Notes under the pieces: generated by a model | Told to the model about the DNA's origin: nothing | Databases searched by the model: none | What the model saw: the letters and a program-made list of their open reading frames with translations, nothing else | Shown here: in pieces, positions 3 to 59,699 of the stretch | How positions within the stretch are numbered: position 1 is the stretch's first letter | How the letters are laid out: the number at the start of each line of letters is the position of its first letter | NCBI GenBank assembly: GCA_964417685.1 | Contig: CAYQIT010000001.1 | Span: 145,157 to 209,156 of the forward strand | Source of the DNA: an uncultured Gammaproteobacteria bacterium | GTDB lineage: Bacteria; Pseudomonadota; Gammaproteobacteria; Magnimaribacterales; D2472 | DNA: 64,000 nt | Reading direction: 5' to 3' | Program-made: the position numbers and the translations under genes

Positions 3-185
3 TTTGATTCAATAGTTGCTTTCGGTGATGGTATGAATGACTATCTTAATGGAGACCAATATATATATTCTGACGATAACCCTCACCTAGGTTATATGAT
101 TAGTAATTCTAAAAAAGAGTTTCACATACACAAGCATAGTGGTGGCATGGTTGTATATAAGTGTTCTTTTTCAGAAATATTATGA
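3..185 (+). CDS. 3' end of an upstream gene (5'-truncated by window edge), hypothetical protein
   Basis: Frame 3 is open from the window edge to TGA at 183-185 (..FGDGMNDYLNGDQYIYSDDNPHLGYM..KCSFSEIL*). It is absent from the ORF track because it has no start in the window. No family recognised. Confidence 0.35.
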   Translation, partial: FDSIVAFGDGMNDYLNGDQYIYSDDNPHLGYMISNSKKEFHIHKHSGGMVVYKCSFSEIL

Positions 186-40305: not shown

Positions 40306-40343
40306 TTAAGTTATAGGTCTAATTACTATTAGTTAATAAGCTC

Positions 40344-40368: not shown

Positions 40369-40407
40369 TATTTATATAAATTTATAACTTAAATTCCTAA
40401 AATAAAA

Positions 40408-41247: not shown

Positions 41248-41248
41248 A

Positions 41249-42107: not shown

Positions 42108-42551
42108 TTAGAAACTTGTTGTAAAGCTGTATCCTTTATCATTCTCTTGAATTGATAAATTTGAAACATTTTTTTCTAAAAGATTGGAGATTTCAGAAAC
42201 TTGATCAACTCCATCCTCTAATTTAACTACATTGAATGCAACTATAACCGAGCCATCAATAAATGATGTTTTGAGGTTGTAATAATTATTACTGGGTAGG
42301 TTTGATGACAAGAATTTATTTATCTCAGCCTCATCGTTAAGTTCTGTTATTTTCTTTTTAGAGACAGATTCAACTTTTTGTTTGACATATTCATAATCAG
42401 ATTTTGCTTTAATAAAATTAAATTTAGTTTGATTATATTCTGTTATAAATGAATTAATTGAAATCACTAATAACGTAAGAGCTATCAGGCCTATGGCAAC
42501 AAAGACTAGTTTTTTTTCCCTTTTATTTAAATTTAAAGAAAGCTTATTCAT
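42108..42551 (-). CDS. gspM: type II secretion system protein M
   Basis: 147 aa with a short basic N-terminus, one TM helix and a periplasmic domain. It is the last gene of the gsp operon and overlaps gspL by 8 nt. The call rests mainly on position and topology. Confidence 0.65.
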   Translation of the reverse strand: MNKLSLNLNKREKKLVFVAIGLIALTLLVISINSFITEYNQTKFNFIKAKSDYEYVKQKVESVSKKKITELNDEAEINKFLSSNLPSNNYYNLKTSFIDGSVIVAFNVVKLEDGVDQVSEISNLLEKNVSNLSIQENDKGYSFTTSF

Positions 42552-44660: not shown

Positions 44661-45219
44661 TCAACCAAAAAAAATCTTTTTCGCCAATAGAAAAATCTAT
44701 TCTTATAAGCGTAGGTATTTTTTTTGAAGTAATTTCATCTAATGGCCATTTGTCATGCCATCTACGCTCATACATAAAAGAGAAATCAAGATTATCTAAG
44801 CCTTTAATTAGCTCAGATCTAGAATGGTCATCTTGGTTATAAGGACTTGATGAAAAGTATTGTTTGCGAACTAATGAATTATCATCAAGCAAATATTCAA
44901 CCCTATTAATATTCGATGATGATAAGGAAAGGTTTTTAATAGAAGTATTAAAAATTATAGAGTTCGATATTTGATCATAGTAAAAAGTTCCAGGAAGCAT
45001 ATCGCCATAAAAATCTCTAGAAGGTACATTTACTGTTTGCCTTATATCTCTTCTGATAATGCTCGAGGTAAGGCTGAGTTCTTTTATTTCATTAAGTTTA
45101 TTTGTAGATATTTCTTCTGATTCAAGTGCGGATGTTAGAATTTGTGAGCAAATTAAGCCTATTAAACTAAGTATAACTAGAGATACAAGAACCTCTATCA
45201 ATGTAAAACCTTTATTCAT
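44626..45219 (-). CDS. gspJ: type II secretion minor pseudopilin J
   Basis: Prepilin N-terminus MNKGFTLIEVLVSLVILSL (ATG at 45219). The track ORF extends to 45276, which would lengthen its overlap with the 3' end of gspI from 8 nt to 65 nt. Confidence 0.8.
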   Translation of the reverse strand: MNKGFTLIEVLVSLVILSLIGLICSQILTSALESEEISTNKLNEIKELSLTSSIIRRDIRQTVNVPSRDFYGDMLPGTFYYDQISNSIIFNTSIKNLSLSSSNINRVEYLLDDNSLVRKQYFSSSPYNQDDHSRSELIKGLDNLDFSFMYERRWHDKWPLDEITSKKIPTLIRIDFSIGEKDFFWLIDPNIDYAYQG

Positions 45220-45595
45220 TGATAATATAACCCTTTGTTTTATATATAGCATTTTTAGCGCCATCTCTCTTAACAATTATCTCGTATTCAAAAAACTCAT
45301 TTGATGAATTTTTTTCAATGACCTCCTCCCATCGCCAAACTTTATTACCCATCTTCATTATTCCGGTTCTTCTGGTTGCGTTATTTGGTTTTTGCATTGT
45401 ATTTATTAAAGCAACCCTATTGTTGGTAACCTCTTTAGCTAAATACCTATCTTCTAAGTACATAATAGAAGTAGTGTTAGAGATAATTACTTGATATATA
45501 GCAAGAATAGAAATACTTAAGACAACAAGAGATACTACAACCTCTATGAGACTAAAGCCTTTAGTATTGAATTTTTTTAACTTCCGTTTTTCCAT
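45212..45595 (-). CDS. gspI: type II secretion minor pseudopilin I
   Basis: Prepilin N-terminus ..KGFSLIEVVVSLVVLS, 127 aa. Confidence 0.8.
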   Translation of the reverse strand: MEKRKLKKFNTKGFSLIEVVVSLVVLSISILAIYQVIISNTTSIMYLEDRYLAKEVTNNRVALINTMQKPNNATRRTGIMKMGNKVWRWEEVIEKNSSNEFFEYEIIVKRDGAKNAIYKTKGYIINE

Positions 45596-46091
45596 TTTTA
45601 TTTATTTCTATTCTTTGAATAAAATCTTGTCTTTTTATATCTAAAGATCCCCCAGAATTTTCTCCAGATGGATAGAAAATAAGAAATGGAAATTTTAAAG
45701 AGCTATCATTATTAATCTCATAAACATTTCCATCAAAAGATCTGAAAACTTTTTCAAAGTTAATAAAATCTTTATAGCCTGATGAGGGCATATCAATAGA
45801 TGCATCAGATATCTTTAATCCATTTGAAGAGATGAAGTAGGCTTTATCAATATCTGGATTGGCATACCATCCAATGATATTTCCAGTTGTTATACTTTCT
45901 TCTGATAAAAATTCAAAAGTCTTTTCAAATGACTTTGCCTTAGCTTCAATTGAATTTAAAGTTGAAAAATTTAAAAATACTAGTGATGACATTAGTCCAA
46001 TAATGACTAGAGTCACCAGTAACTCAATAAGAGTAAAACCTTTAGATTTATTGTAACCAGTTGCCAATATCAGTATCCTCACCAGTTCCAC
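45561..46091 (-). CDS. gspH: type II secretion minor pseudopilin H
   Basis: Prepilin N-terminus ..KGFTLIELLVTLVIIGL. The track start is a GTG that overlaps gspG by 44 nt. An in-frame TTG at 46067 would give a more typical short leader, so the start is uncertain. Confidence 0.75.
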   Translation of the reverse strand: MELVRILILATGYNKSKGFTLIELLVTLVIIGLMSSLVFLNFSTLNSIEAKAKSFEKTFEFLSEESITTGNIIGWYANPDIDKAYFISSNGLKISDASIDMPSSGYKDFINFEKVFRSFDGNVYEINNDSSLKFPFLIFYPSGENSGGSLDIKRQDFIQRIEINKNGKTEVKKIQY

Positions 46092-46476
46092 CTTCTATAC
46101 CATCTGCGCCAAGAGTATAAAGATCAAAATTTCTAGATTTTTGTGGAGGATAAACATAAAGATAATCCCTTCCCCATGGGTCTTTTGGAATAGATGAAAT
46201 ATATCCACCATCTGGAAATAAAAATGGGTTTTTTAGATCAGAGTGAGGTGTTGTAAGTGCTTCAAGACCTTGAGATGTGTTTGGGTAAACAAGTTCATTA
46301 AATTTATATAACTCAAGAGCCTTAGAGGTCTGAGCAAAGTCAGCTTTAATTTTTTCAAGATTGGCCCTTTGAAATACAGGTGATACATTAACAACAACAA
46401 TGGTTGCAAGAATACCCAAAATTACCAAAACTGCCATTAATTCTATTAGAGTAAATCCTTTATTATATTTCTTCAT
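46048..46476 (-). CDS. gspG: type II secretion major pseudopilin G
   Basis: MKKYNKGFTLIELMAVLVILGILA plus the C-terminal DPWGRDYLY motif, 142 aa. Confidence 0.9.
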   Translation of the reverse strand: MKKYNKGFTLIELMAVLVILGILATIVVVNVSPVFQRANLEKIKADFAQTSKALELYKFNELVYPNTSQGLEALTTPHSDLKNPFLFPDGGYISSIPKDPWGRDYLYVYPPQKSRNFDLYTLGADGIEGGTGEDTDIGNWLQ

Positions 46477-46479
46477 ATT

Positions 46480-47676
46480 TTAACCCAATGAAAGTGTATT
46501 CATTTGCATGATAGGTAACAGTATAGCTAAGACTATCATCATTATAAAACCACCCATTACAATAATAACAATAGGCTCAAGCAAGGAAAGAAAAATTGAG
46601 CGCTTAGACTCAATTTCATTTTTCATAAATGATGATACCTTTAAGAACATTTTAGGTAAATTTCCTGATTTGTAGCCACTAGAAATTAATTGAACAAATA
46701 TATCTGGAAATATCTTACTTCTTATTAAAGAACCAACAAAATCCTTACCCTCTATAACCTCTTCTCTTGAAATTCTAATTTGATCTTTTAGATAATGGTT
46801 ATTAAAAACCTCAGAAGACTCATCTAAAGCCACATCAAGATTCATACCAGAGTTAAGCAATAAAGTCATCGTACTAGCAAATCTTTCAGTTTCAGTCAGT
46901 AATATAAAATTTCCAATTAGAGGGATTCCTAATATAAATTTATGAGCTTTTAAAAGGTTCAATTTAGAATTTGTATAATTTTTATATAGAAAAAACCCAA
47001 CTATTGAAAGAATAATAAAAATCAAACATATAAATAAAATATTATTAGAAATAAAAAGCAGTCCCTTTGTTAATAATGGTAACTCGGTACCAGATTTAAT
47101 GAATTGCCCAACAACTTGAGGGAGAACAAATGCAAGTAATGCAATAATCACTGAAATAGAAAAACCTACCAATATAATCGGGTAGGTTAAGGCTGAAATC
47201 ACTTTTTGTTTAATTTCTGCAGATTGTTCAAGATAATCAGCAAGATTATCAAAAATCTCGTCAAGATTTCCAGATGAATCACCAGCAGAAACAAGCGATG
47301 TATAAGTTTTATTAAAAACCCTTGGATAAGCCTTCATTGAATTACCCAACCTCTTGCCTTGAATGATATCTTCTCTAATATTGTATAAAATATTAGATAA
47401 ATCTTTATTACTTGACTGATCTGCGGTAATTTTTAAAGAATCATCAATTGAGGTGCTGGCGTCTAATAGTGTAGATAATTGTCTTGTCATAATAACAATA
47501 TCTTTATTTTTAACTTTGGTTTTATTAATAATTTTTGTATTTGTTACTCTGACTTCAAGAGGCGTTAGATTAAGATCTTTGACTAACTTTCGAGCTTCTC
47601 GCTCAGATTGAGCGCTTACATGCCCCCTCTTCTTTGCTCCCTTTATGTCAAATGCAATATAACTATAGGCTGGCAT
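46480..47676 (-). CDS. gspF: type II secretion inner-membrane platform protein F
   Basis: 398 aa with a duplicated GspF/PilC-type cytoplasmic domain and 3 TM helices. It sits between gspE and gspG. Confidence 0.9.
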   Translation of the reverse strand: MPAYSYIAFDIKGAKKRGHVSAQSEREARKLVKDLNLTPLEVRVTNTKIINKTKVKNKDIVIMTRQLSTLLDASTSIDDSLKITADQSSNKDLSNILYNIREDIIQGKRLGNSMKAYPRVFNKTYTSLVSAGDSSGNLDEIFDNLADYLEQSAEIKQKVISALTYPIILVGFSISVIIALLAFVLPQVVGQFIKSGTELPLLTKGLLFISNNILFICLIFIILSIVGFFLYKNYTNSKLNLLKAHKFILGIPLIGNFILLTETERFASTMTLLLNSGMNLDVALDESSEVFNNHYLKDQIRISREEVIEGKDFVGSLIRSKIFPDIFVQLISSGYKSGNLPKMFLKVSSFMKNEIESKRSIFLSLLEPIVIIVMGGFIMMIVLAILLPIMQMNTLSLG

Positions 47677-49168
47677 TCTCTTTAAGGTTATTAATTCTTA
47701 AAATTTCATCACAAGATGTTACACCAGTTTTAATTAAACTTATTGATGCTTGTTCTATAGAGTCATTATCTTGATCTTGAAAAGCGTAATCTTCTATATC
47801 GGCCTCTGAGGCATTATTATGTATCATTTCTCTCAGCTTTTTGTCTATATGTAAGCACTCCGCAATAGCAATTCTTCCTTTGTAACCAGAACCAAGACAT
47901 TCATCGCAACCTGTTGATGTGTAACACATGGTTCCTGTTTGAATATTTAAAGCAGTTAAGGTTTCTTCATCTGGATTGTCTTCTACTTTACAACTATTGC
48001 ATAGTCTTCTTACAAGCCTTTGAGCGATAATGGTTTTTAAACTAGAAGCTAATAAATAAGACTCAATACCCATATCCCTAAGCCTTGCAACAGCTGCTAC
48101 TGCGCTATTAGTGTGGACTGTAGATAGAACAAGATGTCCTGTGAGACTTGATTGAATACCAATTTGAGCGGTCTCTGCATCTCTCATCTCTCCAACCATG
48201 ACCACATCTGGATCCTGTCTTAAAATAGCTCTTAGACCTTTTGCAAAACTATATCCTGTTTTAGTGTTTACCTGAGTTTGTCCAATACCTCTTAATGTAT
48301 ATTCAATGGGGTCTTCTACTGTGAGAATATTTTGAGAAGAATCACTTAAGTATCTTAATCCAGCATATAAAGTTGTTGTTTTACCCGAACCCGTTGGTCC
48401 AGTGAATAAGATTATCCCTTCCGGGTTCTTTAATGATTTTTTATAATTTTTAAGGATTTTTTCTGGGAGACCTAAATCATCAATATTTATCTGCGCTGAT
48501 TGTTTATCAAGTATTCGCAGAACTATTCTTTCTCCATGAGATGATGGTAAAGAAGATACTCTAACATCAATACTCTTATCACCAAGCGATAATGAAACCC
48601 TGCCATCTTGAGGCAATCTTCTTTCTGAAATATCCAAACCCGACATTATTTTTAAACGTGAAATAAGAACTGAGGAAATTTTACTATCCTGAGCAAGAAC
48701 CTCTTTTAAAATACCATCAACTCTATATCTAACGACTATTTGGTCTTCATATGGTTCAAAATGGATATCTGATGCTCTAAGTTTTATAGCTTTACTTATA
48801 ATTCCATTAATCAATTTGATTATTGGAGCATCATCATTTCCACTTAATAGATCCTCGGTAGCAGAAATACTTCCTGCAAAGGATTCAAGATCAAAGGAGT
48901 CAGTTAATTCTTCTGAAATATCATTAGATACAGCTTCAGACGAGAAAATATTTGTTATATATTCATTAAATTCAGCAGAACTGCACCGTTTGATTGTGAA
49001 TGAAGAGCCTAGATATCTTTGAATTTCATGATACATATCTTTAGTAATATCATTTGGTGAAAGTATTTCTATTGGATCATTACCAGTAACTATTAGCTGA
49101 TGCTCTTTTATATATTCGTATGGGATAACTGAAAAAAGGTTTTCTTTATCCTTAAGTGAATCAAGCAT
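47663..49168 (-). CDS. gspE: type II secretion ATPase E
   Basis: Walker A GPTGSGKTTT, Asp/His boxes, and the tetra-Cys motif (CNSCK ... CDEC). Confidence 0.95.
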   Translation of the reverse strand: MLDSLKDKENLFSVIPYEYIKEHQLIVTGNDPIEILSPNDITKDMYHEIQRYLGSSFTIKRCSSAEFNEYITNIFSSEAVSNDISEELTDSFDLESFAGSISATEDLLSGNDDAPIIKLINGIISKAIKLRASDIHFEPYEDQIVVRYRVDGILKEVLAQDSKISSVLISRLKIMSGLDISERRLPQDGRVSLSLGDKSIDVRVSSLPSSHGERIVLRILDKQSAQINIDDLGLPEKILKNYKKSLKNPEGIILFTGPTGSGKTTTLYAGLRYLSDSSQNILTVEDPIEYTLRGIGQTQVNTKTGYSFAKGLRAILRQDPDVVMVGEMRDAETAQIGIQSSLTGHLVLSTVHTNSAVAAVARLRDMGIESYLLASSLKTIIAQRLVRRLCNSCKVEDNPDEETLTALNIQTGTMCYTSTGCDECLGSGYKGRIAIAECLHIDKKLREMIHNNASEADIEDYAFQDQDNDSIEQASISLIKTGVTSCDEILRINNLKENASL

Positions 49169-49171
49169 AAT

Positions 49172-51025
49172 TTAATCTTGTTTCTTTGAAAGCTCATCTA
49201 GAATTTTTTGTTCCTTAGATAAAATCTGTTGAGCTTTAATATAATTATACTTTTCACTTGATATATCATATGCAGAGTTAGAGTCTGTCATTATTCTTGG
49301 CCTAATGAATATCATCAAATTCTTTTTAATATTATTTTTAGACTTAGTTTGAAAAAGTTTACCAAATAATGGTATTGAGCCTAAAACAGGAACTTTTGAT
49401 ATTGTCTCCTGCGTATCATCATCAATTAGGCCGCCTAGAACAATAGTCTGCCCATCATCAACCAGCGCAGTTGTTTCTATCGCTCTTTTATTAGTTATCA
49501 AATCCACTCCACTAGAAACCACCCCAGCAACACCAGATACTTCAATTTTTATAGCAAGTAGAACAGAGCTTCCCTCATTGATTTGAGGGGTAACATCAAG
49601 TTTTATACCCACCTCTTGTCTGGATGTTGTTCTGAATGGGTTTGCATTATTGGAACCAAGGCTTTCACCTGTCGTAATGGGAATTTCCTGACCGATAATA
49701 GAACTTGCAGTTTCGTTGTCCATGGCAAGGATTGATGGCGTTGATAATATGTTTGAGTTTGTATCTTTGGATACTGCATTTATTATCGCTGCAAAACTAT
49801 CGCCTGATGTAATATCACCGAAACCAGCAATAATGCCTTGAGTATTTAAAAGTGATGATATTGAACTTGATGCAAGAGCTGTATTTGTATCATCTGAAGC
49901 AGCTCCAACAATAGATAGTAAATCTGGTCCAGAGGCATTAAATCTAGTAATACCAATAGGTATCTCCCCATTTTCAGAGTCTCCAGAAAAAATTGTTTCA
50001 ACACCAAGGTCATTTGCAGCATTTTCTGAAATTTCCACAACGATAGCTTCAACCAATACTTGCGCCCTTCGAATGTCCAATTTTGCAATTAGATTTTTTA
50101 AAGTGATGATATTGGATTCATCAGAAGAAATAATAATTGAATTTGTTTTTTCGTGATTGGTTATTACAGTAGCCTTGCCATCCGAATTTGACATAAAACG
50201 ACTAGACATAGAGTTAAGGATTGAGGCAACTTCGCTTGATTTTGCATATTTTAAATAAACAACATCGATTGTTTCATCTTTATTAACTATATCTGCATCC
50301 AAAGTTGCTAATGTTTTTTTGATATTCTCAGTCACAAAATCATTTGCTGAGATAATAATAGAGTTTGATGGAGCAAAAGGAACAGCTATAAACTTATTAA
50401 TAGTTGGATTGTTTTGAGCCTTTAACTTTTCCAATATTCTTACAGCTTCAATTGAAGGTAAGTTTTCCATCTTAACTATTGAGATTTTTGCGCTATTATT
50501 TAGATCAAGATTATTTAAAAGCTCCTTTATTCTCTTAATATTGCTTGCCCTATCAACAATAAGTATTGAATTAATAGAAGCAATGCTGGATAAATGGGAT
50601 TGTCTTCCTGTTATTGGCTTTATCATAGGAAGAACTTCAGCTGATGATCGATTCGCCAATGGAATAACTTCAGTTAAAAAATCAGAGTTTCCACTAACAT
50701 TGAAACTTTCATCTCTGGTAGCTTCATTTTCAGGGACAATACGAACAAATCCATCATCTGCAATAGCTGAAAAACCATTCACTTGCATTGTTCTTAGGTA
50801 AACATTCCAAACCTGCTCTCTATTGAGCTCTGCATTAGAGTAGATTGTTATCTTTCCTTTTACTCTGGGGTCTAAAATAACTGTTTTTTTTGAAAACTGA
50901 GCAATATCTTGTGTAACTTTTTTTATATCAACTTCTTCATAATTAATAATAAATGTATCGGCCACCAAATGATTAATATTAAATACAAGAGAGAGTATTA
51001 AGAATTTATTAAATATATTTTTCAT
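49172..51025 (-). CDS. gspD: type II secretion secretin D
   Basis: Signal peptide, N-domains, and a secretin core ending VPVLGSIPLFGKLF. 617 aa. Confidence 0.9.
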   Translation of the reverse strand: MKNIFNKFLILSLVFNINHLVADTFIINYEEVDIKKVTQDIAQFSKKTVILDPRVKGKITIYSNAELNREQVWNVYLRTMQVNGFSAIADDGFVRIVPENEATRDESFNVSGNSDFLTEVIPLANRSSAEVLPMIKPITGRQSHLSSIASINSILIVDRASNIKRIKELLNNLDLNNSAKISIVKMENLPSIEAVRILEKLKAQNNPTINKFIAVPFAPSNSIIISANDFVTENIKKTLATLDADIVNKDETIDVVYLKYAKSSEVASILNSMSSRFMSNSDGKATVITNHEKTNSIIISSDESNIITLKNLIAKLDIRRAQVLVEAIVVEISENAANDLGVETIFSGDSENGEIPIGITRFNASGPDLLSIVGAASDDTNTALASSSISSLLNTQGIIAGFGDITSGDSFAAIINAVSKDTNSNILSTPSILAMDNETASSIIGQEIPITTGESLGSNNANPFRTTSRQEVGIKLDVTPQINEGSSVLLAIKIEVSGVAGVVSSGVDLITNKRAIETTALVDDGQTIVLGGLIDDDTQETISKVPVLGSIPLFGKLFQTKSKNNIKKNLMIFIRPRIMTDSNSAYDISSEKYNYIKAQQILSKEQKILDELSKKQD

Positions 51026-51027
51026 TT

Positions 51028-51435
51028 TTATCTACCAACTTCATTTTTAATTTTAAACACTTCAGTATCTGTTTGAAATATTATCTCATCTCTACTAACG
51101 CTCATCAAAGTATACTTTCCATCTAACTTTGCTCCCTTTACAACAACCTGTTCTTTGTTTCCTTTTTTTACAACCACTGATGAGTCTTCGTCTCCTGCAA
51201 TAAAACCAATAATTTTGTACTCAAATTCTGTTTCAACAGCTTTAGTTTTATTATCAGCTTCTATACTTTTACTATCAGTTAAGTTTAAAGTCATTTGAGG
51301 AATTTTAAGTTCATTAAAAGTCTCTATAACTGGTTTTGATACAACTGAGTTAATAAGAATAAAAATCAATATAGCAGCGATTATAGCTAAGATACTAAGA
51401 AGCAATAATTTAATTTTTTTTTCTAAATTTAACAT
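51028..51435 (-). CDS. gspC: type II secretion protein C (minimal: TM + HR domain, no PDZ)
   Basis: 135 aa with an N-terminal TM helix and a PilP-like HR domain (YKIIGFIAGDEDSSVVVKKGNKEQVVVKGAKLDGKYTLMSVSRDEIIF). It is the first gene of the operon. Confidence 0.7.
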   Translation of the reverse strand: MLNLEKKIKLLLLSILAIIAAILIFILINSVVSKPVIETFNELKIPQMTLNLTDSKSIEADNKTKAVETEFEYKIIGFIAGDEDSSVVVKKGNKEQVVVKGAKLDGKYTLMSVSRDEIIFQTDTEVFKIKNEVGR

Positions 51436-51467
51436 AAAAAAATGAGCTACTAGTGTAGCTCATTTTT
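51436..51467 (-). terminator. intrinsic terminator between the TonB receptor and gspC
   Basis: The minus strand reads AAAAATGAGCTAC-ACTA-GTAGCTCATTTTTTT followed directly by the gspC ATG. The core stem ATGAGCTAC/GTAGCTCAT is 9 bp and is extendable by A:T pairs. Confidence 0.7.
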
Positions 51468-51476: not shown

Positions 51477-54119
51477 TTAAAAACTAAATTTAAATCCTAA
51501 AGAAATAGATGTGCCTAAGCTATATTGATCATAAACAACTGCAGATGCCATTGAGGCATAGTATTCTTCATCTAATAAATTTCTTAGCTCTATAGAGACC
51601 TTTAGATCAGACATGTTGTAATTTAATTCTCTTGAATAAACAAAGTCTACTAGAAGTGGAGGTTCTTCAATAACATCGGGAAGAACATCAATACCCCTGG
51701 CTCTAACACGATCACTAACATAGTTAATAATCAGAGTTCCCTGCGAACCATTTTGTAAATCATCCCATCCAAGTTGTAAATTAGCGATTGTATCTGATTG
51801 GCCTTGAAGTCTTGTATCTCTTCCATTTAAAAACAATGAAGAAGCTTTTATAGCATTACCTTGGCTGTTTATAAATGTATCATCTTCATCGTAAACAACC
51901 TCTGATTTAGTAGATGTTAAGTTTGCTTTAAGAATAAATTCTTTTGAGCTAGCCCATTCAGAATCAACAAATAGATTTTCAAACACTCTTTCATACTCTA
52001 CTTCAAAACCAGTTAGTTCTGCTGCTGGTACATTCTGATAAGAGGTAACAATTAAATCACCTGACTCATTAACAACTTCTTCAATTGGTTTAGCTATATC
52101 TTTAAAGAAAACTCCAGCTGTTAAAAACTGATTTAGCCCCCAATAATATTCAAACCTTAGATCGAGATTGTCAATTTCAGAATTTTCTAAGTATAAAGAT
52201 CCTGCAATAACTCTATCAGTATCTACATCAATAAAGAGTGTTGGAGACAGCTCTCTAAATGTTGGTTTTGCAATTGTTTTTGACAAGCCTAATCTTATTT
52301 GTAAATTTTCATCAAAGGATGGTAAATAAGTAAGTGTAAATGATGGCAAGTTATAATTTTCATCGATAATTTTTTCAATATCGGAATCAATTGGTTGAAA
52401 GACATCATATGTGTTTACAAATTGCTTACCATCTTCTGATCTAATTCCAGCAGAAAGTCTATAATTTTCATTAAGATATGCATCCATGCTTATATAAAAA
52501 GCTGATGTTTCAAGAAGACCAGTATATCCTGCTGGAGATGAGGCTGCAGTATTTTCAATCACAAGAAGCCTTGATGGATCAAAGTTCTTATCTTCAAAAA
52601 TATAATCAATTCTATTAGCTAGAAATTCAGTAGGAATTGGCCCACCTTCTGCAAGAAATCTAAAACTTCGTACTTGAGCATCTCTAGTATTTTCAGTTGA
52701 ATCAGCTCCAAGTTTTAAAATAACTTCATTATCTGCAAGTTGAATTGGTAAGGTTAAATCAAAACCAAAATTTTCATTTTCATCCTCAACATAACTAAAC
52801 TGAGTTTGGTTTCTTCCTGTGTTCACATCATATCTCCAGAAACCTCTGTCATCTGTATCTTCATAAAAGACCACCCTCTCATAAGGTGAATTTCTTGAAG
52901 CATCGCCTGAAGTATATCTAAAATCAATTTCAGCATAATTATCGAATACATATGTTGCATTAAGTTGATGGTTGTTCAGCTCTCTTTCAAAAAATTCAAT
53001 AAAGTCTTCCCTTACATTACCGGCATCACTTGAGTCATACCCTTGAAGGATACGCGACCTTTTTGATCCCTTATGTATATACATTCCAGTATATTTAAGA
53101 CTATATGAATCTGCTTCTATACCAGCAACAGACATTGCATAGGTAGTAACATCATTTGATGTGCTCCTAAAGGTCTTGTTATTAGATACGATTACCGATG
53201 ATGTTCCATCTCCTTGAGCTTGCAATGTTCCTGTTTGTCTTAAACCTTCTTGAGAGTCCCATGAGCTTCTTATGCCCGAGGTGAACATTAGCCCAAATAC
53301 AGCACTATTATCATTCAAGATTTTATCTATACCAATGTCTATTTCGTCTCCATATGTAAAATTTAAAGAACTATCTAGAGGTACTTCTCCCTCTTGTATA
53401 ACCCAAAGCTCTGAATTTACAAATTCTCTTCCAGCATTTGATAATTCAAATGTTTTAAAATTTGAGCGGTCAAGTTTTTTATTTTGATTTATAGCAGACT
53501 TTACAAAGTCAGGGAAATCTCTTAAACCATCATCATATCCAAACTTATCATCATCACTTCCGTCATATAACAAACCATCTTTTAAACTTGTTGCATCATT
53601 AAAGCCAGATGAAAATGAGAAATCTAAAACTCTATCAGCTGGAACAGCTTTTGTTTCTATTTCAATTATACCTCCACCAAATTCTCCGGGCATATCTGCC
53701 GAGTATGTTTTCTGAACAACAGAATTAGCAATGATTTGAGTAGGAAATAAATCTAACGGAACCACTCTTTTGAGGGGCTCTGGACTTGGAAGATTGGATC
53801 CATTCAATGTTGCAGCTGAATATCTCTCTCCTAAACCCCTTACATAAACATATTTACCTCTAACTAAACTTAAACCTGTAAGCCTAGTAAGTGCAACTGC
53901 AATATTATCATCACCAGTTCTTTCTATCTCTGATGAATCTAGGATTGAAGATATCTCTGATGTGTCTCTTTTTTCATCAGGTATAAAAGAGCCACTTACA
54001 ACTACTTCTTCAATTTCTTGAGAAGTGGCTGTAAGTGATAGACCGAGCATCAAAGATAACATAGTCATTAGTATTAAGTTTGATCTTTGGAACTTGAATT
54101 TATATTTTAAAATTGTCAT
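51477..54119 (-). CDS. TonB-dependent receptor
   Basis: The likely start is MTILKYKF..LSLTATS|QEIEEVVV (ATG at 54119, GGAG SD upstream). The track ORF extends to 54215 into the upstream gene. It has a plug, a barrel and the terminal ..SISLGFKFSF. Confidence 0.85.
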   Translation of the reverse strand: MTILKYKFKFQRSNLILMTMLSLMLGLSLTATSQEIEEVVVSGSFIPDEKRDTSEISSILDSSEIERTGDDNIAVALTRLTGLSLVRGKYVYVRGLGERYSAATLNGSNLPSPEPLKRVVPLDLFPTQIIANSVVQKTYSADMPGEFGGGIIEIETKAVPADRVLDFSFSSGFNDATSLKDGLLYDGSDDDKFGYDDGLRDFPDFVKSAINQNKKLDRSNFKTFELSNAGREFVNSELWVIQEGEVPLDSSLNFTYGDEIDIGIDKILNDNSAVFGLMFTSGIRSSWDSQEGLRQTGTLQAQGDGTSSVIVSNNKTFRSTSNDVTTYAMSVAGIEADSYSLKYTGMYIHKGSKRSRILQGYDSSDAGNVREDFIEFFERELNNHQLNATYVFDNYAEIDFRYTSGDASRNSPYERVVFYEDTDDRGFWRYDVNTGRNQTQFSYVEDENENFGFDLTLPIQLADNEVILKLGADSTENTRDAQVRSFRFLAEGGPIPTEFLANRIDYIFEDKNFDPSRLLVIENTAASSPAGYTGLLETSAFYISMDAYLNENYRLSAGIRSEDGKQFVNTYDVFQPIDSDIEKIIDENYNLPSFTLTYLPSFDENLQIRLGLSKTIAKPTFRELSPTLFIDVDTDRVIAGSLYLENSEIDNLDLRFEYYWGLNQFLTAGVFFKDIAKPIEEVVNESGDLIVTSYQNVPAAELTGFEVEYERVFENLFVDSEWASSKEFILKANLTSTKSEVVYDEDDTFINSQGNAIKASSLFLNGRDTRLQGQSDTIANLQLGWDDLQNGSQGTLIINYVSDRVRARGIDVLPDVIEEPPLLVDFVYSRELNYNMSDLKVSIELRNLLDEEYYASMASAVVYDQYSLGTSISLGFKFSF

Positions 54120-54153: not shown

Positions 54154-57099
54154 CTATTGGACTTCAATAGTTCCAGAGAGTGTCCAGTTTTTATACCAAT
54201 CATCGGTTGCTCCACTAACAGCTCCTATGTATGAGGTAGTTTCAAAGAAACCATCGGCGTTATAAATACTTGGAATAGAGGTAACAGTAGCCGAATTTTC
54301 TGCAGAGCCATTAACAACTCCAATTACAGTATTTACATAACTCCCGCCACCTGAATTTGATCCATACAAGTTATTAGAACCAGCCCTTACTATTGCTTCA
54401 ACTTCAGCAGTTGTTGCATTACCATCAGTTTTAATAAAGCCTGAGCAATCCAATGCTACAGAATTCATTGAGAAGACTGGCGTAACAGCACCATCCTTAA
54501 CAGTTTCGTTAAAAGTAGTTTCTATACAATTAGTTTCTTTTCCAGTCACCGAGCTATTTACAACTGCAATCCCGTTGAAGTACTGACCAGATACACCTTC
54601 CTTAAGCTTAAATATCTCATCATGTCCTTTAGAAATAAAAGTAAAATTAGAAACTATTGGGTTTGAACGAGGTTCAGATAAATAACCAACAGCGCTGTCA
54701 CTGTTTACATTATCAGATTCGACAATATGATCTCCTTTGTCATTAGACTGTTGGACAATGACATACTGGATTCTGCCAGTGTAACCCCAGTCAATATCTA
54801 AATTATCATCATCGGCACCGGTACAAATTAGATGTTTAACATCAACAGTGCCACCAAAAAACTCAACGCAGTCATCAGCATTGTTGTGAACTTGTACATA
54901 ATCAACGCTTGTTCCTGACCCAACACCTCCGAATGTAATTCCATTTAGCTCATTTCCTGGAAATACTTCGTATCCAGCATATTGAACCCTTAGATATTTT
55001 AAAGAACCGCTGCTATCAGTTGGACTCTCACCACCCATCATGTCACCGGCAGATCCTTCTACCTCTCTTTCACATGGGTCTACTCTTACACCAGCTGCAG
55101 TTGCAGTTCCGCCTTGTGTGTATGCGCATTTGTTTATAGGTGCTCTACCAAGTAGAACTAATCCACCCCAAAGACCTCTAGTACTAACAATATCTGCCTC
55201 TCCAAGAAGATCTTGTTTACCAGTCATTATGATTGGTGCTGATGCTGTTCCTACTGCATTAATTTTTGACCCTCTTTTAATAACTAAATAATCATTACCA
55301 GACTCTCCAAATAAAGTTACGCCTGGTTCAATTGTTAATACTGCAGCAATACCTCCAGAAGCATCACCGGATGAGCCTAAGTCCTTACCAACAGCAACCT
55401 TCCCGTCAATTTTATAGTAGTTTCCAGATACCAATGTTAAGTCTGAGGTTATCTCTCCCTGCAAGCTGCAAACCTTTTTTCCAAGCAGTACTTCAGATTC
55501 AAGAGTACCCTCAGGACACTCAGGATCAGTAAACAATCCTATAGTCCAACCTGATGCCCAGTTATTCTCTAAATCAGAACCAGGAGAAAATGCACCGATA
55601 TAATCAGTTGCAGAGAACCAAGTATTAATAGTGTAGTTACCATCATCAAACCCAGGACATAATTCTGTAGTTTCACCTGCAGAATGAATACCAACTGCAC
55701 ACATAGCATCAATTTTGTTTATATTGAATGCAGAAGTAACAGCTGATTCAGCTTCACCTAAAAAGAAATCTGATACAAGAGTAGAGGTACCTAAAACTAG
55801 ATCTGTTGATCTCTCAATTAAAGATGCCTGAAGCTCTTCTGCTGTAACACCACTAGATTCTGTATCAGCCTTAAATGGTGATGTATCTCCAGCTGAATCC
55901 ATAAAGATAGAGTGATGTTGAATTTTAGGGGTAATTAGACCATCTTGAATAGTTTCCAGGTTTGTTGATTCAACTAAATTTTGTGAATTAGCATTTTTAA
56001 CAATTCCGTTAATATATACACCTGAAACACCTTCTTTGTATTTTAAAGGCTCATCAGCGCCTTGTGCTAAGAAAGTAAAATTTGCAACCATTGGTCTTGA
56101 CCTTGGCTCAGTTAAATAACCAACAGATGCATCTGCATTAGTATTATCGGACTCTACAACATGATCACTTTGATCAGAACTTTGTTTTACAACAACATAT
56201 TGCATTTTACCTTGGTAACCCCAATCGATATCAAGATTGTCATCACCTGCATTTGTACAAACCAAGTGCTTAACATTTACAGTTCCGCCAAAAAACTCAA
56301 CGCAATCATCTTGGTTGTTATGTACCTGAATATAATCGACCACTGTCGCGGATCCAACAGCGCCAAATGTAATACCATTTAACTCATTACCAGGAAATAT
56401 TTCATAACCTGCGTATTCAACCCTTACAAAATTTAACTTACCTGAATTATCATCAGCTAGAGTTCCACCCATAAGCGCATTAGAACCTTCAACAACTTTT
56501 TCACAAGCAGCTGTTCCTCTAACATCATTTGAACATTTGTTTATTGGAGCTTTACCAAGTATGACTATACCGCCCCATAAACCTCTTTCAAGCTCTCCAA
56601 CACTTCCCTCAATAGCTGTGTTATGTGTAAATCTTATTGGTTTAGACCTTGTACCATTAGCTATAATTTGTGAGCCTCTATTTACAACAAGGTAGTCATT
56701 TGAAGTTTTACCCATTATCACTACGCCAGCAGGAATAGTTAACTTACCAGCAGCTCCACCTGCTTTTGTTCCATCTCCACCCATATCAGAACCGACCTCA
56801 ACCTTACCAAGCATTCTGTACATAACATCATCAGTTAATGTTAGATCTTCTGTAATAACACCAGAAATAGCACAAACGGTATTACCTGCAACAGGTGATC
56901 CATTTGTTATATAAGTTGAGTTAGGACATTCTCCAGTTAATATAGAACTTGATGAGCCTCCTGTACCGCCCCCACCAGTAGGGTCAGTTAATGGGCCTTG
57001 TTCACCTGGTGAAACAATAGAAGTGCTTGAGCCACCACAAGACACTAATATGATTGAAATAGTTAATAAATAAAGTTGATTAAGTTTGTTATGTAACAT
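54154..57099 (-). CDS. large outer-membrane lipoprotein made of two tandem ~460-aa units, function unknown (beta-helix-like)
   Basis: Signal peptide and lipobox IILVSC with Gly at +2, and a GGAGGA SD. Two homologous units carry LWGG.V.LG.APINKC, YAGYE.FPGNELNGITFG, DDCVEFFGGTV.VKH, DDNLDIDWGY and ESDN. No named family recognised. Confidence 0.8.
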   Translation of the reverse strand: MLHNKLNQLYLLTISIILVSCGGSSTSIVSPGEQGPLTDPTGGGGTGGSSSSILTGECPNSTYITNGSPVAGNTVCAISGVITEDLTLTDDVMYRMLGKVEVGSDMGGDGTKAGGAAGKLTIPAGVVIMGKTSNDYLVVNRGSQIIANGTRSKPIRFTHNTAIEGSVGELERGLWGGIVILGKAPINKCSNDVRGTAACEKVVEGSNALMGGTLADDNSGKLNFVRVEYAGYEIFPGNELNGITFGAVGSATVVDYIQVHNNQDDCVEFFGGTVNVKHLVCTNAGDDNLDIDWGYQGKMQYVVVKQSSDQSDHVVESDNTNADASVGYLTEPRSRPMVANFTFLAQGADEPLKYKEGVSGVYINGIVKNANSQNLVESTNLETIQDGLITPKIQHHSIFMDSAGDTSPFKADTESSGVTAEELQASLIERSTDLVLGTSTLVSDFFLGEAESAVTSAFNINKIDAMCAVGIHSAGETTELCPGFDDGNYTINTWFSATDYIGAFSPGSDLENNWASGWTIGLFTDPECPEGTLESEVLLGKKVCSLQGEITSDLTLVSGNYYKIDGKVAVGKDLGSSGDASGGIAAVLTIEPGVTLFGESGNDYLVIKRGSKINAVGTASAPIIMTGKQDLLGEADIVSTRGLWGGLVLLGRAPINKCAYTQGGTATAAGVRVDPCEREVEGSAGDMMGGESPTDSSGSLKYLRVQYAGYEVFPGNELNGITFGGVGSGTSVDYVQVHNNADDCVEFFGGTVDVKHLICTGADDDNLDIDWGYTGRIQYVIVQQSNDKGDHIVESDNVNSDSAVGYLSEPRSNPIVSNFTFISKGHDEIFKLKEGVSGQYFNGIAVVNSSVTGKETNCIETTFNETVKDGAVTPVFSMNSVALDCSGFIKTDGNATTAEVEAIVRAGSNNLYGSNSGGGSYVNTVIGVVNGSAENSATVTSIPSIYNADGFFETTSYIGAVSGATDDWYKNWTLSGTIEVQ
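54157..56931 (-). repeat. intragenic tandem duplication (unit A nt 55531-56931, unit B nt 54157-55521)
   Basis: Unit A covers aa ~57-523 and unit B aa ~527-981, and they align end to end. In the 115-aa core from YAGYE to NFTF I count 88 identical positions by eye. Confidence 0.85.
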
Positions 57100-57189: not shown

Positions 57190-57236
57190 GGTAACAAATT
57201 ATTACGAATGTTACATATGTTACATATGTTACAAAT
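57190..57236. promoter_or_regulatory. tandem 9-bp repeat array (ATGTTACAT)n, candidate response-regulator binding site
   Basis: GGTAACAAATTATTACGAATGTTACATATGTTACATATGTTACAAATC. TGTTACA starts at 57209, 57218 and 57227. A degenerate copy TATTACG is at 57200 and an inverted copy GGTAACA at 57190. The array lies between the kinase stop and the lipoprotein start. Confidence 0.5.
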
Positions 57237-57244: not shown

Positions 57245-59002
57245 CTAGTATTTTGGAAGGGTAAACCAAAAGTTACATCCATTTATACTTGAGTTCTTTA
57301 GGCCAACGTCACCACTTAAGCTATGCACCAAATTCTTTACTATAGCTAAACCCAAGCCACTTCCAGTTGCATCAGAAGCTCGTGCTTGAGCAGTTCTGAA
57401 AAACCTTCCAAAAATTAAATCCTTATCTGCAATATCTATACCCTGACCTTTATCAATAATATTAACCTCTATATTTTTTTCAGAATTTTTAAAAAGAATT
57501 TCTACTGAAGAGTTTGAAGGACTATACTTTATTGCGTTATCAATTAAGTTTATAAGTATTCTTTCCAAAGCTTTTGAATCTGCTCTAACAAATAGATCTA
57601 AGTTTTCATTAAAACTAAAAGATATGTTTTTTTTTGCTGCTAGCCCACTTAGAGAATCTAAAACCTTTAATATAGATTGATTCAAATTAATTTTCTCAAA
57701 ATTTAGTTTTAATTCACCATATTCTATTCTTGATAGATCAATGAGATCAGAAACCATTTCAGAAAGTCTTTGAGCATTATGCAAAATAGCAGTTGAAAAC
57801 ATTTTTGCATCTTCTCTATTATCCAAAGCACCATTCAACAAAGTTTCAGAATTTGCCCTAATAACACTTACAGGTGTCCTCAATTCATGAGAAACATTTG
57901 ATATAAAATCCCTCCGCATGGAATCTAGCTTTCTTAATTGAGTTATGTCATGAACTACCAATATAAATTCTTTTGTTGATTTGGATTGATTTATGGAACC
58001 AAGAACCCATCTGGTTTTTCCATTACCTATATCAATCTCAAATTCCTTATCAGCTTTTTTCTTTTTACTAGCTGTTTCATACAAGTTTAAAATTGGGGTT
58101 ATAGGGATATCTTCAAGACGAGATTTTTCAATATTTTCTAGATTTAAAATTAATAAAGCTTGATCGTTATTAAAAGTTACTTCGGCTGATTCGTTAAAAA
58201 CAATAATACCTTCACCTAAATCATCCAAAACTGATCCAAATTGATTTCTTTGTTTTGCAATTAGCCTTACTTGGGTTTTTAATTTATCTGAAATTTGAGA
58301 AATACTCCTTGCCACATTACCAAACTCATCAACTCTTTGAGTGGGAAGAGCTTTTAAAGCTTTTCTCTTCAATGGAGTATCTGCTAAAGAAGAGACTGCA
58401 TCATCAAGCTCAGATAAATTTCTATATGTATAGTTAGAAGATAGTGTGCTAGTTATCATAGCAACAAAAAATGCCACTACTGCTATTAATAGTATTGAAA
58501 TATCTAAGCTTGCAATTACCCTATCGAGATAGGTATAAGGTACTGCTATTCTAATAATATTAGGTTTTTCTTCATTGTTATCAAGAATAGCAAAATATAA
58601 AAGTTGCTCGTTGGTTGTGTTACTGTATCTTGAAGACCAGCCTGTTCCAAAAGAGAGAGCGTCTATTACCTCTTTTCTATTACTGTGATTATCTAAACTT
58701 GCAATAAGATCAATGGGAACTCCTGAGTCACCAATAACACTTCCATCATTAAGAATAAGAGTGACTCTTGAATCAGAAGCATTCCCAAGCCTGTCTGCAA
58801 GTGAGTCAGATGCCGTTACACCTTTCAATGAATCAATTTCATCAATATTTTCAACAAGAAGTTTTGCTTGTTTCTCAAGCTGATAGACAATTTGCTCTTC
58901 AAATGTGTTAGTAATATCTCTTTCTGCGATAGTGTAAGCAATGCTTATGCTCACTCCAAGTGAAAGAAATACTATTAAAAATACTCGGGATCTTATACCC
59001 AT
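57245..59002 (-). CDS. sensor histidine kinase with periplasmic domain (PhoR-like)
   Basis: TM1 at aa ~6-24, a ~140-aa periplasmic domain, TM2 at aa ~166-186. A linker/PAS-like region is followed by the H-box SHELRTP, the N-box DNAIKYS, and the G-boxes DKGQGI and GSGLGLAIV. Confidence 0.9.
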   Translation of the reverse strand: MGIRSRVFLIVFLSLGVSISIAYTIAERDITNTFEEQIVYQLEKQAKLLVENIDEIDSLKGVTASDSLADRLGNASDSRVTLILNDGSVIGDSGVPIDLIASLDNHSNRKEVIDALSFGTGWSSRYSNTTNEQLLYFAILDNNEEKPNIIRIAVPYTYLDRVIASLDISILLIAVVAFFVAMITSTLSSNYTYRNLSELDDAVSSLADTPLKRKALKALPTQRVDEFGNVARSISQISDKLKTQVRLIAKQRNQFGSVLDDLGEGIIVFNESAEVTFNNDQALLILNLENIEKSRLEDIPITPILNLYETASKKKKADKEFEIDIGNGKTRWVLGSINQSKSTKEFILVVHDITQLRKLDSMRRDFISNVSHELRTPVSVIRANSETLLNGALDNREDAKMFSTAILHNAQRLSEMVSDLIDLSRIEYGELKLNFEKINLNQSILKVLDSLSGLAAKKNISFSFNENLDLFVRADSKALERILINLIDNAIKYSPSNSSVEILFKNSEKNIEVNIIDKGQGIDIADKDLIFGRFFRTAQARASDATGSGLGLAIVKNLVHSLSGDVGLKNSSINGCNFWFTLPKY

Positions 59003-59006: not shown

Positions 59007-59699
59007 TCAATCAGATGTTCTTGTAAATTTATATCCTACACCGCGAATAGTCTGAACATATTTTCCGATTGGACCAAGCTTTTCTCTCAATCTCTTAATA
59101 TGTGTGTCAACTGTTCTGGTTGTTATATCAGCACTATAACCCCAAACATCTGAAAGAAGCTGATCTCTTGTTTGAACCCTTCCTCGACGATCTACAAGTT
59201 GCTGGAGAAGCCTAAATTCAAGTGCTGTTAATGTTACTTCTTTATTATCTACAAAAACTTCATGGGACTCTACATCTATTTTGAGCTCACCAAACTCCCT
59301 ATCAATTTCCATAACATCATGTTTGGTTACGTTTCTTTTTAAAATTGCTTTGATTCTAAGAATTAGTTCACGAACACTAAATGGTTTAGTTACATAATCA
59401 TCTGCTCCAAGCTCAAAACCAACAACTTTATCAACCTCATCATCTTTAGCTGTAAGAATTATGATTGGTATATCTTTAAGAGATTTATCTGATTTAATTT
59501 TTCTGCAAAAATCCAATCCCGATCCATCTGGAAGCATTAAATCAAGTAATATTAATGAAATGTTGTTAGCTGCTATTAAGTTTTCTGAATCTGATAAATT
59601 GCCAGCAGATAAAGTCTGAAAATTATCTTTATGAAGGTTGTACTCCAGAGTTTTTCTTATATCAGGTTCATCTTCAACAATTAAGATCGTATTAGTCAT
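59007..59699 (-). CDS. OmpR/PhoB-family response regulator
   Basis: Receiver domain (ILIVEDE, LLDLMLPD, TAKD, TKPF) plus a winged-helix DNA-binding domain (..TVDTHIKRLREKL.. TIRGVGYKF). It lies 4 nt upstream of the kinase gene. Confidence 0.9.
   Translation of the reverse strand: MTNTILIVEDEPDIRKTLEYNLHKDNFQTLSAGNLSDSENLIAANNISLILLDLMLPDGSGLDFCRKIKSDKSLKDIPIIILTAKDDEVDKVVGFELGADDYVTKPFSVRELILRIKAILKRNVTKHDVMEIDREFGELKIDVESHEVFVDNKEVTLTALEFRLLQQLVDRRGRVQTRDQLLSDVWGYSADITTRTVDTHIKRLREKLGPIGKYVQTIRGVGYKFTRTSD

Follow-up and report, generated by a model that had tools for sequence, protein, structure and literature searches.

A tandemly duplicated lipoprotein of the ElpS family in a putative phosphorus-scavenging island of a SAR86-type marine gammaproteobacterium

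The 64,000-nucleotide stretch of contig CAYQIT010000001.1 analysed here (the window), which derives from an uncultured gammaproteobacterium, encodes on its minus strand a lipoprotein of 981 amino acids (54154..57099, ATG start) that is a tandemly duplicated homologue of Caulobacter ElpS, followed by a gene for a TonB-dependent receptor. Membership of the ElpS family is secure at the level of sequence homology. With a probability of about 0.6, the pair is read as a surface module under Pho control, in which the lipoprotein captures a phosphorus-bearing polymer or complex for the receptor and may also cleave it. The strongest contextual evidence, absent from the initial annotation of this DNA, is a type II secretion system (T2SS) operon located downstream, a PhoB/PhoR-like regulator pair located upstream and the phosphorus genes that surround them; judged by its gene content, the window appears to be a phosphorus-scavenging island of a SAR86-type marine gammaproteobacterium. 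The ElpS family itself has already been described, as ElpS in 2010, as the FI-FIII lipoproteins in 2021, as the BT4056 lids in 2023 and as the Pfam family Beta_helix_4. Specific to the present locus are the two-unit architecture, the SAR86 host and the compact phosphorus island with its candidate regulator and operator.

Architecture and family identity of the lipoprotein

The coordinates and length of the gene were given correctly in the initial annotation; the strand, which was left unstated, is minus. The N-terminus, MLHNKLNQLYLLTISIILVSC, comprises the signal peptide, the lipobox LVSC with Cys21, the glycine at position +2 and the Gly/Ser linker extending to residue 56, all of which are seen in the translation as had been described. 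The remainder of the protein consists of two tandem units, A and B. Alignment of unit A (aa 57-524) with unit B (aa 527-981) by BLASTP revealed 224 identities in 485 columns (46%, E 9e-126), a similarity beyond chance that bears out the proposed tandem architecture. Every motif listed in the initial annotation is present twice, at matching places in both units, and the 88 identities that it counted among the 115 positions of the YAGYE..NFTF core were confirmed exactly. Each unit also contains four pairs of cysteines whose positions match between A and B, which would fit an extracytoplasmic, disulfide-bonded protein.

Of the 79 family N-termini obtained from genome loci, 77 contain a lipobox-like motif, and residues S30, P31 and G32 of the tether are invariant across 24 homologues. 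The lipidated cysteine is followed by the motif C-x(3-8)-[IV]-x-S-P-G (window 57014-57036, aa 22-29..32), located ahead of the low-complexity linker, and the combination of a lipobox with [IVLMA]xSPG was found at 68 of the 79 genome loci (L010-L089). This SPG tether motif is absent chiefly from Alteromonadales-type and Steroidobacter members, and it lies approximately nine residues ahead of the published ElpS cleavage site. It could represent a sorting, docking or processing signal.

The view taken in the initial annotation, that no characterised family accommodates the protein, was not upheld, as its homologues carry PF28492 (Beta_helix_4) and a clear homologue is found in Caulobacter ElpS. 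Scans of the lipoprotein against NCBIfam and against a Pfam-A release older than PF28492 gave no family match; the lack of a local Pfam match is explained by PF28492 being newer than the copy used. A protein search returned 1,421 homologues, and the precomputed PF28492 assignment is attached to all of the 120 listed, including the 99%-identical protein P0001. The closest named relatives belong to SAR86 cluster bacteria, with 65-79% identity; the G+C content of the window is 33%. An exhaustive HMMER search with unit B identified 5,682 representatives of clusters formed at 50% identity at E ≤ 1e-3, and 1,744 at E ≤ 1e-30. The architectures recovered in this way comprise one unit (approximately 450-505 aa), two units (approximately 920-1,000 aa) or more, up to a length of approximately 2,400 aa. 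Two homologues, P0036 and P0042, are labelled 'trimeric autotransporter adhesin' in public (JGI) annotation; an autotransporter-adhesin identity was rejected, given the lipobox and the absence of a C-terminal barrel or trimeric architecture.

The link to ElpS was established using an orthologue from Caulobacter sp. BE264 (locus L080), which was found with the published elpS, CC0171 and gspE primers. The upstream elpS primer matches L080 exactly, the elpS start primer has one mismatch, the two elpS quantitative PCR primers have two and one mismatches, and the published reverse primer agrees with the encoded C-terminus (..CTSLPTN). Exact matches in the genes further downstream were obtained for the forward primer of CC0171 and for both gspE primers, and the elpS gene defined by these primers is the same one that was identified as the Beta_helix_4 match in the genome scan. 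BLASTP comparison of this ElpS with the two units gave 33% identity in 462 columns for unit B (E 1e-59) and 35% in 359 columns for unit A (E 1e-49), the latter alignment extending into the lipobox and SPG region. The homology spans the entire unit, which identifies the window protein as an ElpS homologue duplicated in tandem. According to the literature, it is related through ElpS to Bacteroides BT4056 and to the FI, FII and FIII lipoproteins of Flavobacterium, which are reported to be 31-36% identical to ElpS and to have a pectin-lyase-like fold (PMC8115612). A literature search on PF28492, SAR86 T2SS, T2SS-linked beta-helix proteins and TonB-dependent receptors, and recent work on ElpS yielded nothing beyond the papers cited here.

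Fold, acidic ladder and history of the duplication

The right-handed beta-helix suggested in the initial annotation is borne out by the predicted structure. The AlphaFold2 model of the full protein consists of two beta-rich domains (predicted local distance difference test score, pLDDT, 77.6), and unit B alone, for which the unit-level prediction was based on a 27-row alignment, was modelled with a pLDDT of 88.8 and a predicted template-modelling score of 0.90. The best 50 Foldseek matches of unit B in the PDB are all right-handed beta-helix proteins, with pectate lyases, alginate lyases of polysaccharide lyase family 6 (PL6), glycoside hydrolases of families GH28 and GH110, AlgE epimerases, pectin methylesterases and phage tailspikes as neighbours. 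These matches are remote (E ≥ 0.013, template-modelling score ≤ 0.37, identity ≤ 12%). The Pfam model Beta_helix (PF13229) weakly matches 16 of 109 family units, with a best E value of 3e-4. The predictions thus support a unit folded as a right-handed beta-helix of stacked rungs. Searches of all PDB sequences with the protein (phmmer) and with a profile of the 109 units (hmmsearch) found nothing at E ≤ 10, and the ElpS-type unit is without a close solved structure and outside the known enzyme families. None of the catalytic signatures of GH28, PL1 and PL6 could be matched to the unit; there is no PDB sequence or close structural match.

Conserved residues were examined in an alignment of the 109 units, which come from approximately 85 loci; unit B numbering is used, to which 526 is added to obtain protein numbering. 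Two cysteines and the residues D216, D217, E220, F222, G223, G224, D238, D242, E268, N292 and N316 are invariant in all of the units, and both units of the window protein retain all of the invariant ladder residues. The ladder residues are spaced 22-28 residues apart, on consecutive strands of the predicted structure, and are therefore expected to be stacked along one face of the modelled helix. This invariant acidic ladder resembles the catalytic or calcium-binding ladders of beta-helix enzymes.

Since the carboxylates are conserved throughout and the structural neighbours are mostly enzymes, the ElpS-type unit may itself be an enzyme, in which the Asp/Glu ladder (DDxxE, DDxxD, E) would act as a metal-dependent site that depolymerises a phosphorus-rich polymer at the cell surface. 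The substrate could be polyphosphate, teichoic-acid-like polyol phosphates or phosphorylated glycans, and its fragments would pass to the dedicated TonB receptor. We regard this specific proposal as rather unlikely; if true, it would define a new class of phosphorus-scavenging exoenzyme in SAR86 and hundreds of other genera, and the tandem duplication would provide two active grooves per receptor.

The YAGYE..NFTF cores of the two units have a DNA identity of 72%, and the same codon is used at only 42 of the 88 conserved residues. The duplication is therefore not a recent one, and recent gene conversion between the units was rejected as an explanation of their similarity. Two-unit proteins are encoded at 25 of the 80 loci of the genome scan, and one-unit proteins at the other 55. 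In a neighbour-joining tree of single units, including those of approximately 25 two-unit proteins, the sister units of one protein are usually nearest relatives across distant lineages, while among close lineages the first units cluster together; in SAR86, second units are 80% identical to each other, as against approximately 52% between first and second units. The pattern reflects either repeated lineage-specific duplication or old concerted evolution. The two-unit architecture is common in the family, yet it is undiscussed in the cited literature.

Receptor pairing, secretion genes and the phosphorus-related neighbourhood

The stop codon of the lipoprotein gene (54154-54156) is separated by 34 nt from the ATG of the receptor gene at 54119, which is preceded by a GGAGA Shine-Dalgarno sequence; the gap, the lipoprotein-first order and the separate Shine-Dalgarno sequence are all as initially claimed. 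The receptor has a signal peptide, a TonB-box-like sequence EEVVVSG, a Plug domain (Pfam) and a match to TIGR01782 (NCBIfam), and no PDB sequence relative was found for it at E ≤ 0.001. Conserved pairing with a TonB receptor had been set as a test in the initial annotation. The genome scan covered 80 loci of Caulobacterales, Sphingomonadales, Hyphomonadaceae, Xanthomonadales, Steroidobacteraceae, Alteromonadales and SAR86, a non-random sample ranked by similarity to an alphaproteobacterial query, and of the 75 loci with at least 1.5 kb of downstream sequence, 74 have a homologue of the window receptor (28-47% identity) as the immediately following gene on the same strand; in the exceptional locus the receptor lies 3 kb further on. 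A TonB receptor is also located directly downstream in all of seven contexts inspected by hand, which contain relatives with 35-47% identity or single-unit relatives. Conserved proximity of BT4055 and BT4056 has been reported in 621 genera, 171 of them proteobacterial (bioRxiv 10.1101/2023.03.17.533168), and our scan independently reproduces this statement of Price and Arkin.

An alternative reading is a passive lid or adhesin, in which the units would do no more than cover the receptor or adhere to particles, lacking any specific ligand chemistry. Such a role would agree with the JGI names of P0036 and P0042, the 'lid' proposal for BT4056, and the frequent occurrence of beta-helices in adhesins, two of which, Ag43 and PfbA, are among the Foldseek matches. 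We find it improbable, as the lipoprotein has neither an autotransporter barrel nor a trimeric architecture, AlphaFold-Multimer gave no tight cap for BT4055/BT4056, and eight polar ladder residues are invariant in 109 units, which speaks for a specific site and against unspecific adhesion.

The receptor gene is followed by a T2SS operon. Genes gspD, gspE and gspF were found after the lipoprotein-receptor pair in 35 of the 62 loci with at least 8 kb of downstream sequence. An ElpS homologue has been reported inside the Xanthomonas xcs T2SS cluster (PMC7777525), and the Xanthomonas arboricola locus of our scan (L019) has the xcs-type arrangement; the T2SS of Caulobacter belongs to the PhoB regulon (PMC11208175). 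In the window, a strong intrinsic-terminator-like hairpin is located before gspC, and the lipoprotein and receptor genes therefore probably constitute their own transcription unit, apart from the T2SS operon. Two SAR86 loci (L090 and L091; GCA_902593805.1 and GCA_902589075.1) keep the pair with no T2SS in the locus. The receptor pairing in 74 of 75 loci against T2SS linkage in 35 of 62, together with these SAR86 loci, suggests that the receptor partnership is the core of the module and T2SS-dependent release is accessory to it. The GspC-like protein of the window (51028-51435, minus strand) is only 135 aa long, with weak T2SSC matches and no PDZ domain, and the GspC proteins at other loci comprise 288-332 aa with PDZ matches. 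Neither gspN nor a prepilin peptidase gene was identified within the window operon, the last two open reading frames (ORFs) of which have no family match. In L090 and L091 the pair is followed by genes for a MIP-family channel and a thioredoxin-type arsenate reductase.

The same data bear on the possibility that the lipoprotein is a released accessory exoprotein, which acts after T2SS-dependent proteolysis by activating or scaffolding secreted phosphatases, as proposed by Le Blastier et al., while the receptor imports none of its ligands. ElpS is cleaved at residue 38, its release is T2SS- and protease-dependent, and its overexpression raises the alkaline phosphatase activity of the supernatant (PMC2996285); in the window a T2SS operon lies directly downstream. 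However, the pairing with the receptor is far tighter than that with the T2SS, SAR86 loci L090 and L091 retain the pair with no T2SS in the locus, a terminator-like hairpin separates the pair from gspC in the window, and deletion of elpS has no phosphatase phenotype. A function confined to the released protein is thus considered unlikely.

The lipoprotein and receptor genes are the last two of a run that begins with an OmpR/PhoB-family response regulator and a sensor histidine kinase. Compared with genuine PhoB proteins encoded beside homologous loci, the response regulator shows 43% identity, and a PhoB-like regulator is encoded upstream of the lipoprotein in four SAR86 loci (L083, L086, L090 and L091). 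In Rheinheimera, Steroidobacter and genome OW818678, the pair is flanked by PhoB and PhoR proteins whose scores exceed the NCBIfam cut-offs. In distant SAR86 lineages (65-66% identity) the regulator and kinase genes are followed by ppx, ppk2 and then the lipoprotein-receptor pair, and the T2SS is absent from the locus. The kinase of L090 and L091 has 450 aa, while that of the window has 585 aa with an sCache-like sensor domain.

The region upstream of the lipoprotein gene contains direct repeats, in which TGTAACNNNTGTAAC occurs exactly twice (overlapping), compared with 0.23 occurrences expected per window. Upstream of the homologous genes in L083, L086, L090 and L091, (T/C)GTAAC-like hexamers are arranged with a period of 11 bp. 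Hexamers with this period constitute the Pho box architecture of the E. coli consensus. The three TGTAAC repeats of the window are spaced by 9 bp, and a classical Pho box was rejected for the lipoprotein promoter, which has the hexamer motif with a spacing of 9 bp instead of 11 bp; its repeats are therefore termed Pho-box-like only. They may serve as candidate binding sites for the adjacent PhoB-like regulator.

The phosphorus genes (34640-42106) adjoin the T2SS operon beyond its far end and encode an exopolyphosphatase-like protein, PPK2, a phosphate transporter and, in one operon, a second TonB receptor and a beta-propeller phytase. A candidate Pho box upstream of the second receptor, TGTAACACAATTGTCAC, is the sole match to YGTAAYNNNNNYGTMAY in the window (0.25 expected); its hexamer also occurs in the repeats upstream of the lipoprotein gene. 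In Hyphomonadaceae locus L001 (7299-9726), genes for a Ppx-GppA protein and a prepilin peptidase (Peptidase_A24) are located ahead of the homologous module, a further example of polyphosphate-related genes beside it. Two divergent genes of AMP-forming acyl-CoA ligases are present upstream of the regulator (59775-61445, minus strand, and 61523-63178, plus strand), with no apparent link to the locus.

The fold itself could suggest a carbon-acquisition module of the kind found in Xanthomonas and Caulobacter carbohydrate-utilisation loci, in which glycan-binding or glycan-cleaving units feed oligosaccharides to a TonB-Xanth-Caul-type receptor and the phosphorus genes are coincidental or co-regulated. 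The Foldseek neighbours (pectate and alginate lyases, polygalacturonases, epimerases and tailspikes), the best NCBIfam match of the receptor (TIGR01782) and the similarity of the acidic ladder to catalytic or calcium-binding ones accord with this scheme. The modelling of FI and FII on polygalacturonase by Lidbury et al. (PMC8115612) points in the same direction. However, no genes for glycoside hydrolases, sugar transporters or sugar kinases are present at the locus, the neighbourhood is phosphorus-related across several phyla and classes, induction is phosphate-specific in Caulobacter and Flavobacterium, and the fold matches are as remote as described above, with no PDB sequence found by the family profile. 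Carbon acquisition is accordingly a doubtful explanation of the locus.

Table 1. Features of the lipoprotein gene and its neighbourhood in the window.
Feature	Window position	Strand	Position in protein, aa (unit A / unit B)	Basis or remarks
Lipoprotein signal peptide and lipobox (LVSC, Cys21)	57037..57099	minus		Translation
Tether: SIVSPG, then Gly/Ser-rich linker	56932..57036	minus	SIVSPG, 27-32	Motif conservation
Unit A, ElpS-type beta-helix unit (predicted)	55531..56931	minus	57-523	Homology; mostly beta strands in AlphaFold2 model
Unit B, ElpS-type beta-helix unit (predicted)	54157..55521	minus	527-981	Homology; AlphaFold2 model
Unit A DDCVE, first ladder rung	56296..56310	minus	264-268	Alignment; then D..D 286/290, E316
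Unit B DDCVE, first ladder rung	54862..54876	minus	742-746	Alignment; then D764, D768, E794, N818, N842
ECP			57 / 527
LWGG			174 / 643
APINKC			184 / 653
VHNN			259 / 737
DDCVEFFGGTV			264 / 742
DDNLDIDWGY			286 / 764
ESDN			316 / 794
EPRS			331 / 809
YIGA			500 / 957
Direct repeats TGTAACATA x3, then CGTAAT, TGTTAC	57191..57233	minus		92-134 nt upstream of start codon
Sensor histidine kinase (PhoR/PnpS-like), periplasmic sCache-like domain	57245..59002	minus		Pfam HisKA, HATPase_c, sCache_like
OmpR/PhoB-family response regulator	59007..59699	minus		Pfam Response_reg and Trans_reg_C; first gene of the regulator-kinase-lipoprotein-receptor run
Cognate TonB-dependent receptor, 880 aa from ATG 54119	51477..54119	minus		Plug domain, TIGR01782 (TonB-Xanth-Caul)
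Intrinsic-terminator-like hairpin, 13-bp stem and T run	51438..51467	minus		Between receptor stop and gspC start
gspC-D-E-F-G-H-I-J-K-L-M operon	42108..51435	minus		Pfam/NCBIfam: GspC (weak), D, E, F, G, I, J, K; H, L, M by position
Ppx/GppA-family exopolyphosphatase-like gene	41249-42106	plus
PPK2	40408-41247	plus
PHO4/PitA-type phosphate transporter	39055-40305	minus
Candidate Pho box TGTAACACAATTGTCAC, two hexamers 11 bp apart	38390-38406	minus		31-47 nt upstream of TTG at ORF start of second receptor
Second TonB receptor	35789-38359	minus		Followed by beta-propeller phytase
Beta-propeller phytase	34640-35731	minus

Proposed function and comparison with known systems

In the capture mechanism favoured here, the lipid-anchored protein would be displayed at the cell surface on its flexible tether and work together with the receptor, whose gene begins 34 nt downstream. 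Under phosphate starvation the adjacent PhoB/PhoR-like system would probably switch on the pair via the (T/C)GTAAC direct repeats. Each beta-helix unit is envisaged to have a groove lined by the invariant Asp/Glu ladder, which would bind, and possibly cleave, a polymer or complex that carries phosphorus and exceeds the size that porins admit; the ladder may bind its ligand via a metal, or act in cleavage. The product would be handed to the receptor for TonB-energised import, and periplasmic and cytoplasmic enzymes would then release phosphate. By analogy with ElpS, the neighbouring T2SS may release or process the lipoprotein or export accessory enzymes. We infer, in this mechanism, the surface exposure, the Pho regulation in a SAR86-type host and the ligand.

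Several points weigh against this mechanism. A ligand is known for no member of the family, the experiments on the family come from organisms other than SAR86, and the carbohydrate-active nearest structural neighbours of the predicted fold would fit a phosphorus-free glycan equally well. The locus sample that revealed the receptor pairing is non-random, as stated above. The regulatory proteins of the window remain below the NCBIfam cut-offs: the best match of the response regulator, PhoB (TIGR02154), scores 246 bits against a cut-off of 296, and the kinase scores 297 against 400 bits for PnpS and 227 against 334 for phoR_proteo. The spacing of the promoter repeats, 9 bp, differs from the 11 bp of the classical Pho box. 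Purified or immunoprecipitated ElpS had no phosphatase activity with p-nitrophenyl phosphate, deletion of elpS left the supernatant phosphatase activity unchanged, and the Caulobacter receptor CC0171 was reported to be constitutive while elpS is not (PMC2996285). In Bacteroides, AlphaFold-Multimer gave few high-confidence contacts between BT4055 and BT4056 (bioRxiv 10.1101/2023.03.17.533168).

In the surface ocean, where phosphorus is frequently in short supply, SAR86 bacteria rank with the most abundant heterotrophs; in the locus described here, an ElpS-type lipoprotein-receptor pair is situated at the centre of a compact SAR86 phosphorus island. The family is large (5,682 cluster representatives) and almost invariably linked to a dedicated TonB transporter. 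In the two organisms studied, its members count among the exoproteins that are most abundant and most strongly induced by phosphate starvation. Identification of its substrate would reveal a further route in the bacterial phosphorus cycle, and would also explain the frequent attachment of a secondary T2SS of the Xanthomonas Xcs type. The main gain of the present analysis is the correct classification of the lipoprotein, along with leads in the form of the acidic ladder, the SPG tether motif and the GTAAC repeats.

The initial annotation compared the pair with tbpB-tbpA; the analogy in gene order and topology stands, while kinship does not, the folds being unrelated. In the TbpB-TbpA and HpuA-HpuB pairs of Neisseria and related bacteria, the first gene encodes a flexibly tethered surface lipoprotein, which captures a ligand for the TonB receptor encoded by the second; the window has the same gene order and a flexible N-terminal tether, and TbpB likewise has an internal duplication, with two lobes. 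The fold of TbpB, composed of handle and eight-stranded barrel lobes, is however unrelated to a beta-helix, the ligands of these systems are iron proteins, and their surface export is mediated by Slam. The likeness is therefore only an analogy. A TbpB-like identity was rejected, since the predicted structure is a beta-helix and no TbpB-like structure is present among the Foldseek matches. That the pair is a bipartite receptor of this type for a host or metal-carrier protein has a negligible probability: the predicted fold all but refutes the hypothesis, iron depletion does not induce ElpS (PMC2996285), and the host, whose homologues are named SAR86, is a free-living marine oligotroph.

The SusD-SusC and BtuG-BtuB lid-transporter systems of Bacteroidota, in which a lipoprotein gene adjoins that of a TonB transporter and the lipoprotein helps to capture the substrate, also provide an analogy only. 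SusD is an alpha-helical TPR-like protein and BtuG a beta-propeller, and neither is a beta-helix; a SusD-like identity was rejected because the model is almost entirely beta and no SusD/RagB Pfam match was found. The PL1 and PL6 lyases, GH28 enzymes, AlgE epimerases and tailspikes have the fold class and the Asp/Glu/Asn rung ladders in common with the window unit, and the PL6 lyase AlyGC also contains two beta-helix domains. These enzymes differ from the family in showing no sequence-level relation to it in the search of the PDB with the 109-unit profile, and in template-modelling scores of at most 0.37.

Lipoprotein genes immediately upstream of a T2SS operon are also known for PulA of Klebsiella and SslE (YghJ) of E. 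coli, whose display or release is T2SS-dependent. PulA is a pullulanase and SslE an M60 mucinase; they belong to known enzyme families and have no partner TonB receptor. Unlike in these proteins, the T2SS is required for the release of ElpS but not for its reaching the surface.

In Bacteroides, BT4056 is homologous to CCNA_00170/ElpS and was proposed to act as a 'lid' of the TonB-dependent transporter BT4055 (bioRxiv 10.1101/2023.03.17.533168). It is a single-unit protein with a predicted lid role, in contrast to the two-unit protein of the window, to which it is similar by description, through ElpS. In Flavobacterium johnsoniae the FII lipoprotein Fjoh_0546 and the transporter Fjoh_0545 are encoded within the phoBR operon, are upregulated approximately 2^8- to 2^10-fold upon phosphate depletion, and are among the genes and exoproteins most strongly induced by low phosphate; Fjoh_0546 is a major exoprotein (PMC8115612). 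This locus resembles the window in its neighbourhood of response regulator, histidine kinase, lipoprotein and receptor, and the reported likeness of the protein again runs through ElpS. It differs in belonging to another phylum, in the transporter gene preceding that of the lipoprotein, and in export, which presumably follows a Bacteroidota route with no T2SS.

In Caulobacter, cc0170 (elpS, encoding a lipoprotein of approximately 50 kDa), cc0171 (the TonB receptor) and gspC-N follow one another in that order, and ElpS is palmitoylated, located in the outer membrane and produced only under phosphate starvation (Le Blastier et al. 2010; PMC2996285). The window differs from this arrangement in the PhoB/PhoR-like pair immediately upstream, the terminator-like hairpin before the T2SS operon and the short GspC of 135 aa, and its lipoprotein contains two units in tandem where ElpS (approximately 512 aa) has one. 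The two proteins are alike in the lipobox, the [IV]xSPG tether and the low-complexity linker, and their loci in the order of lipoprotein, TonB-dependent receptor and T2SS and in a phosphate-related context.

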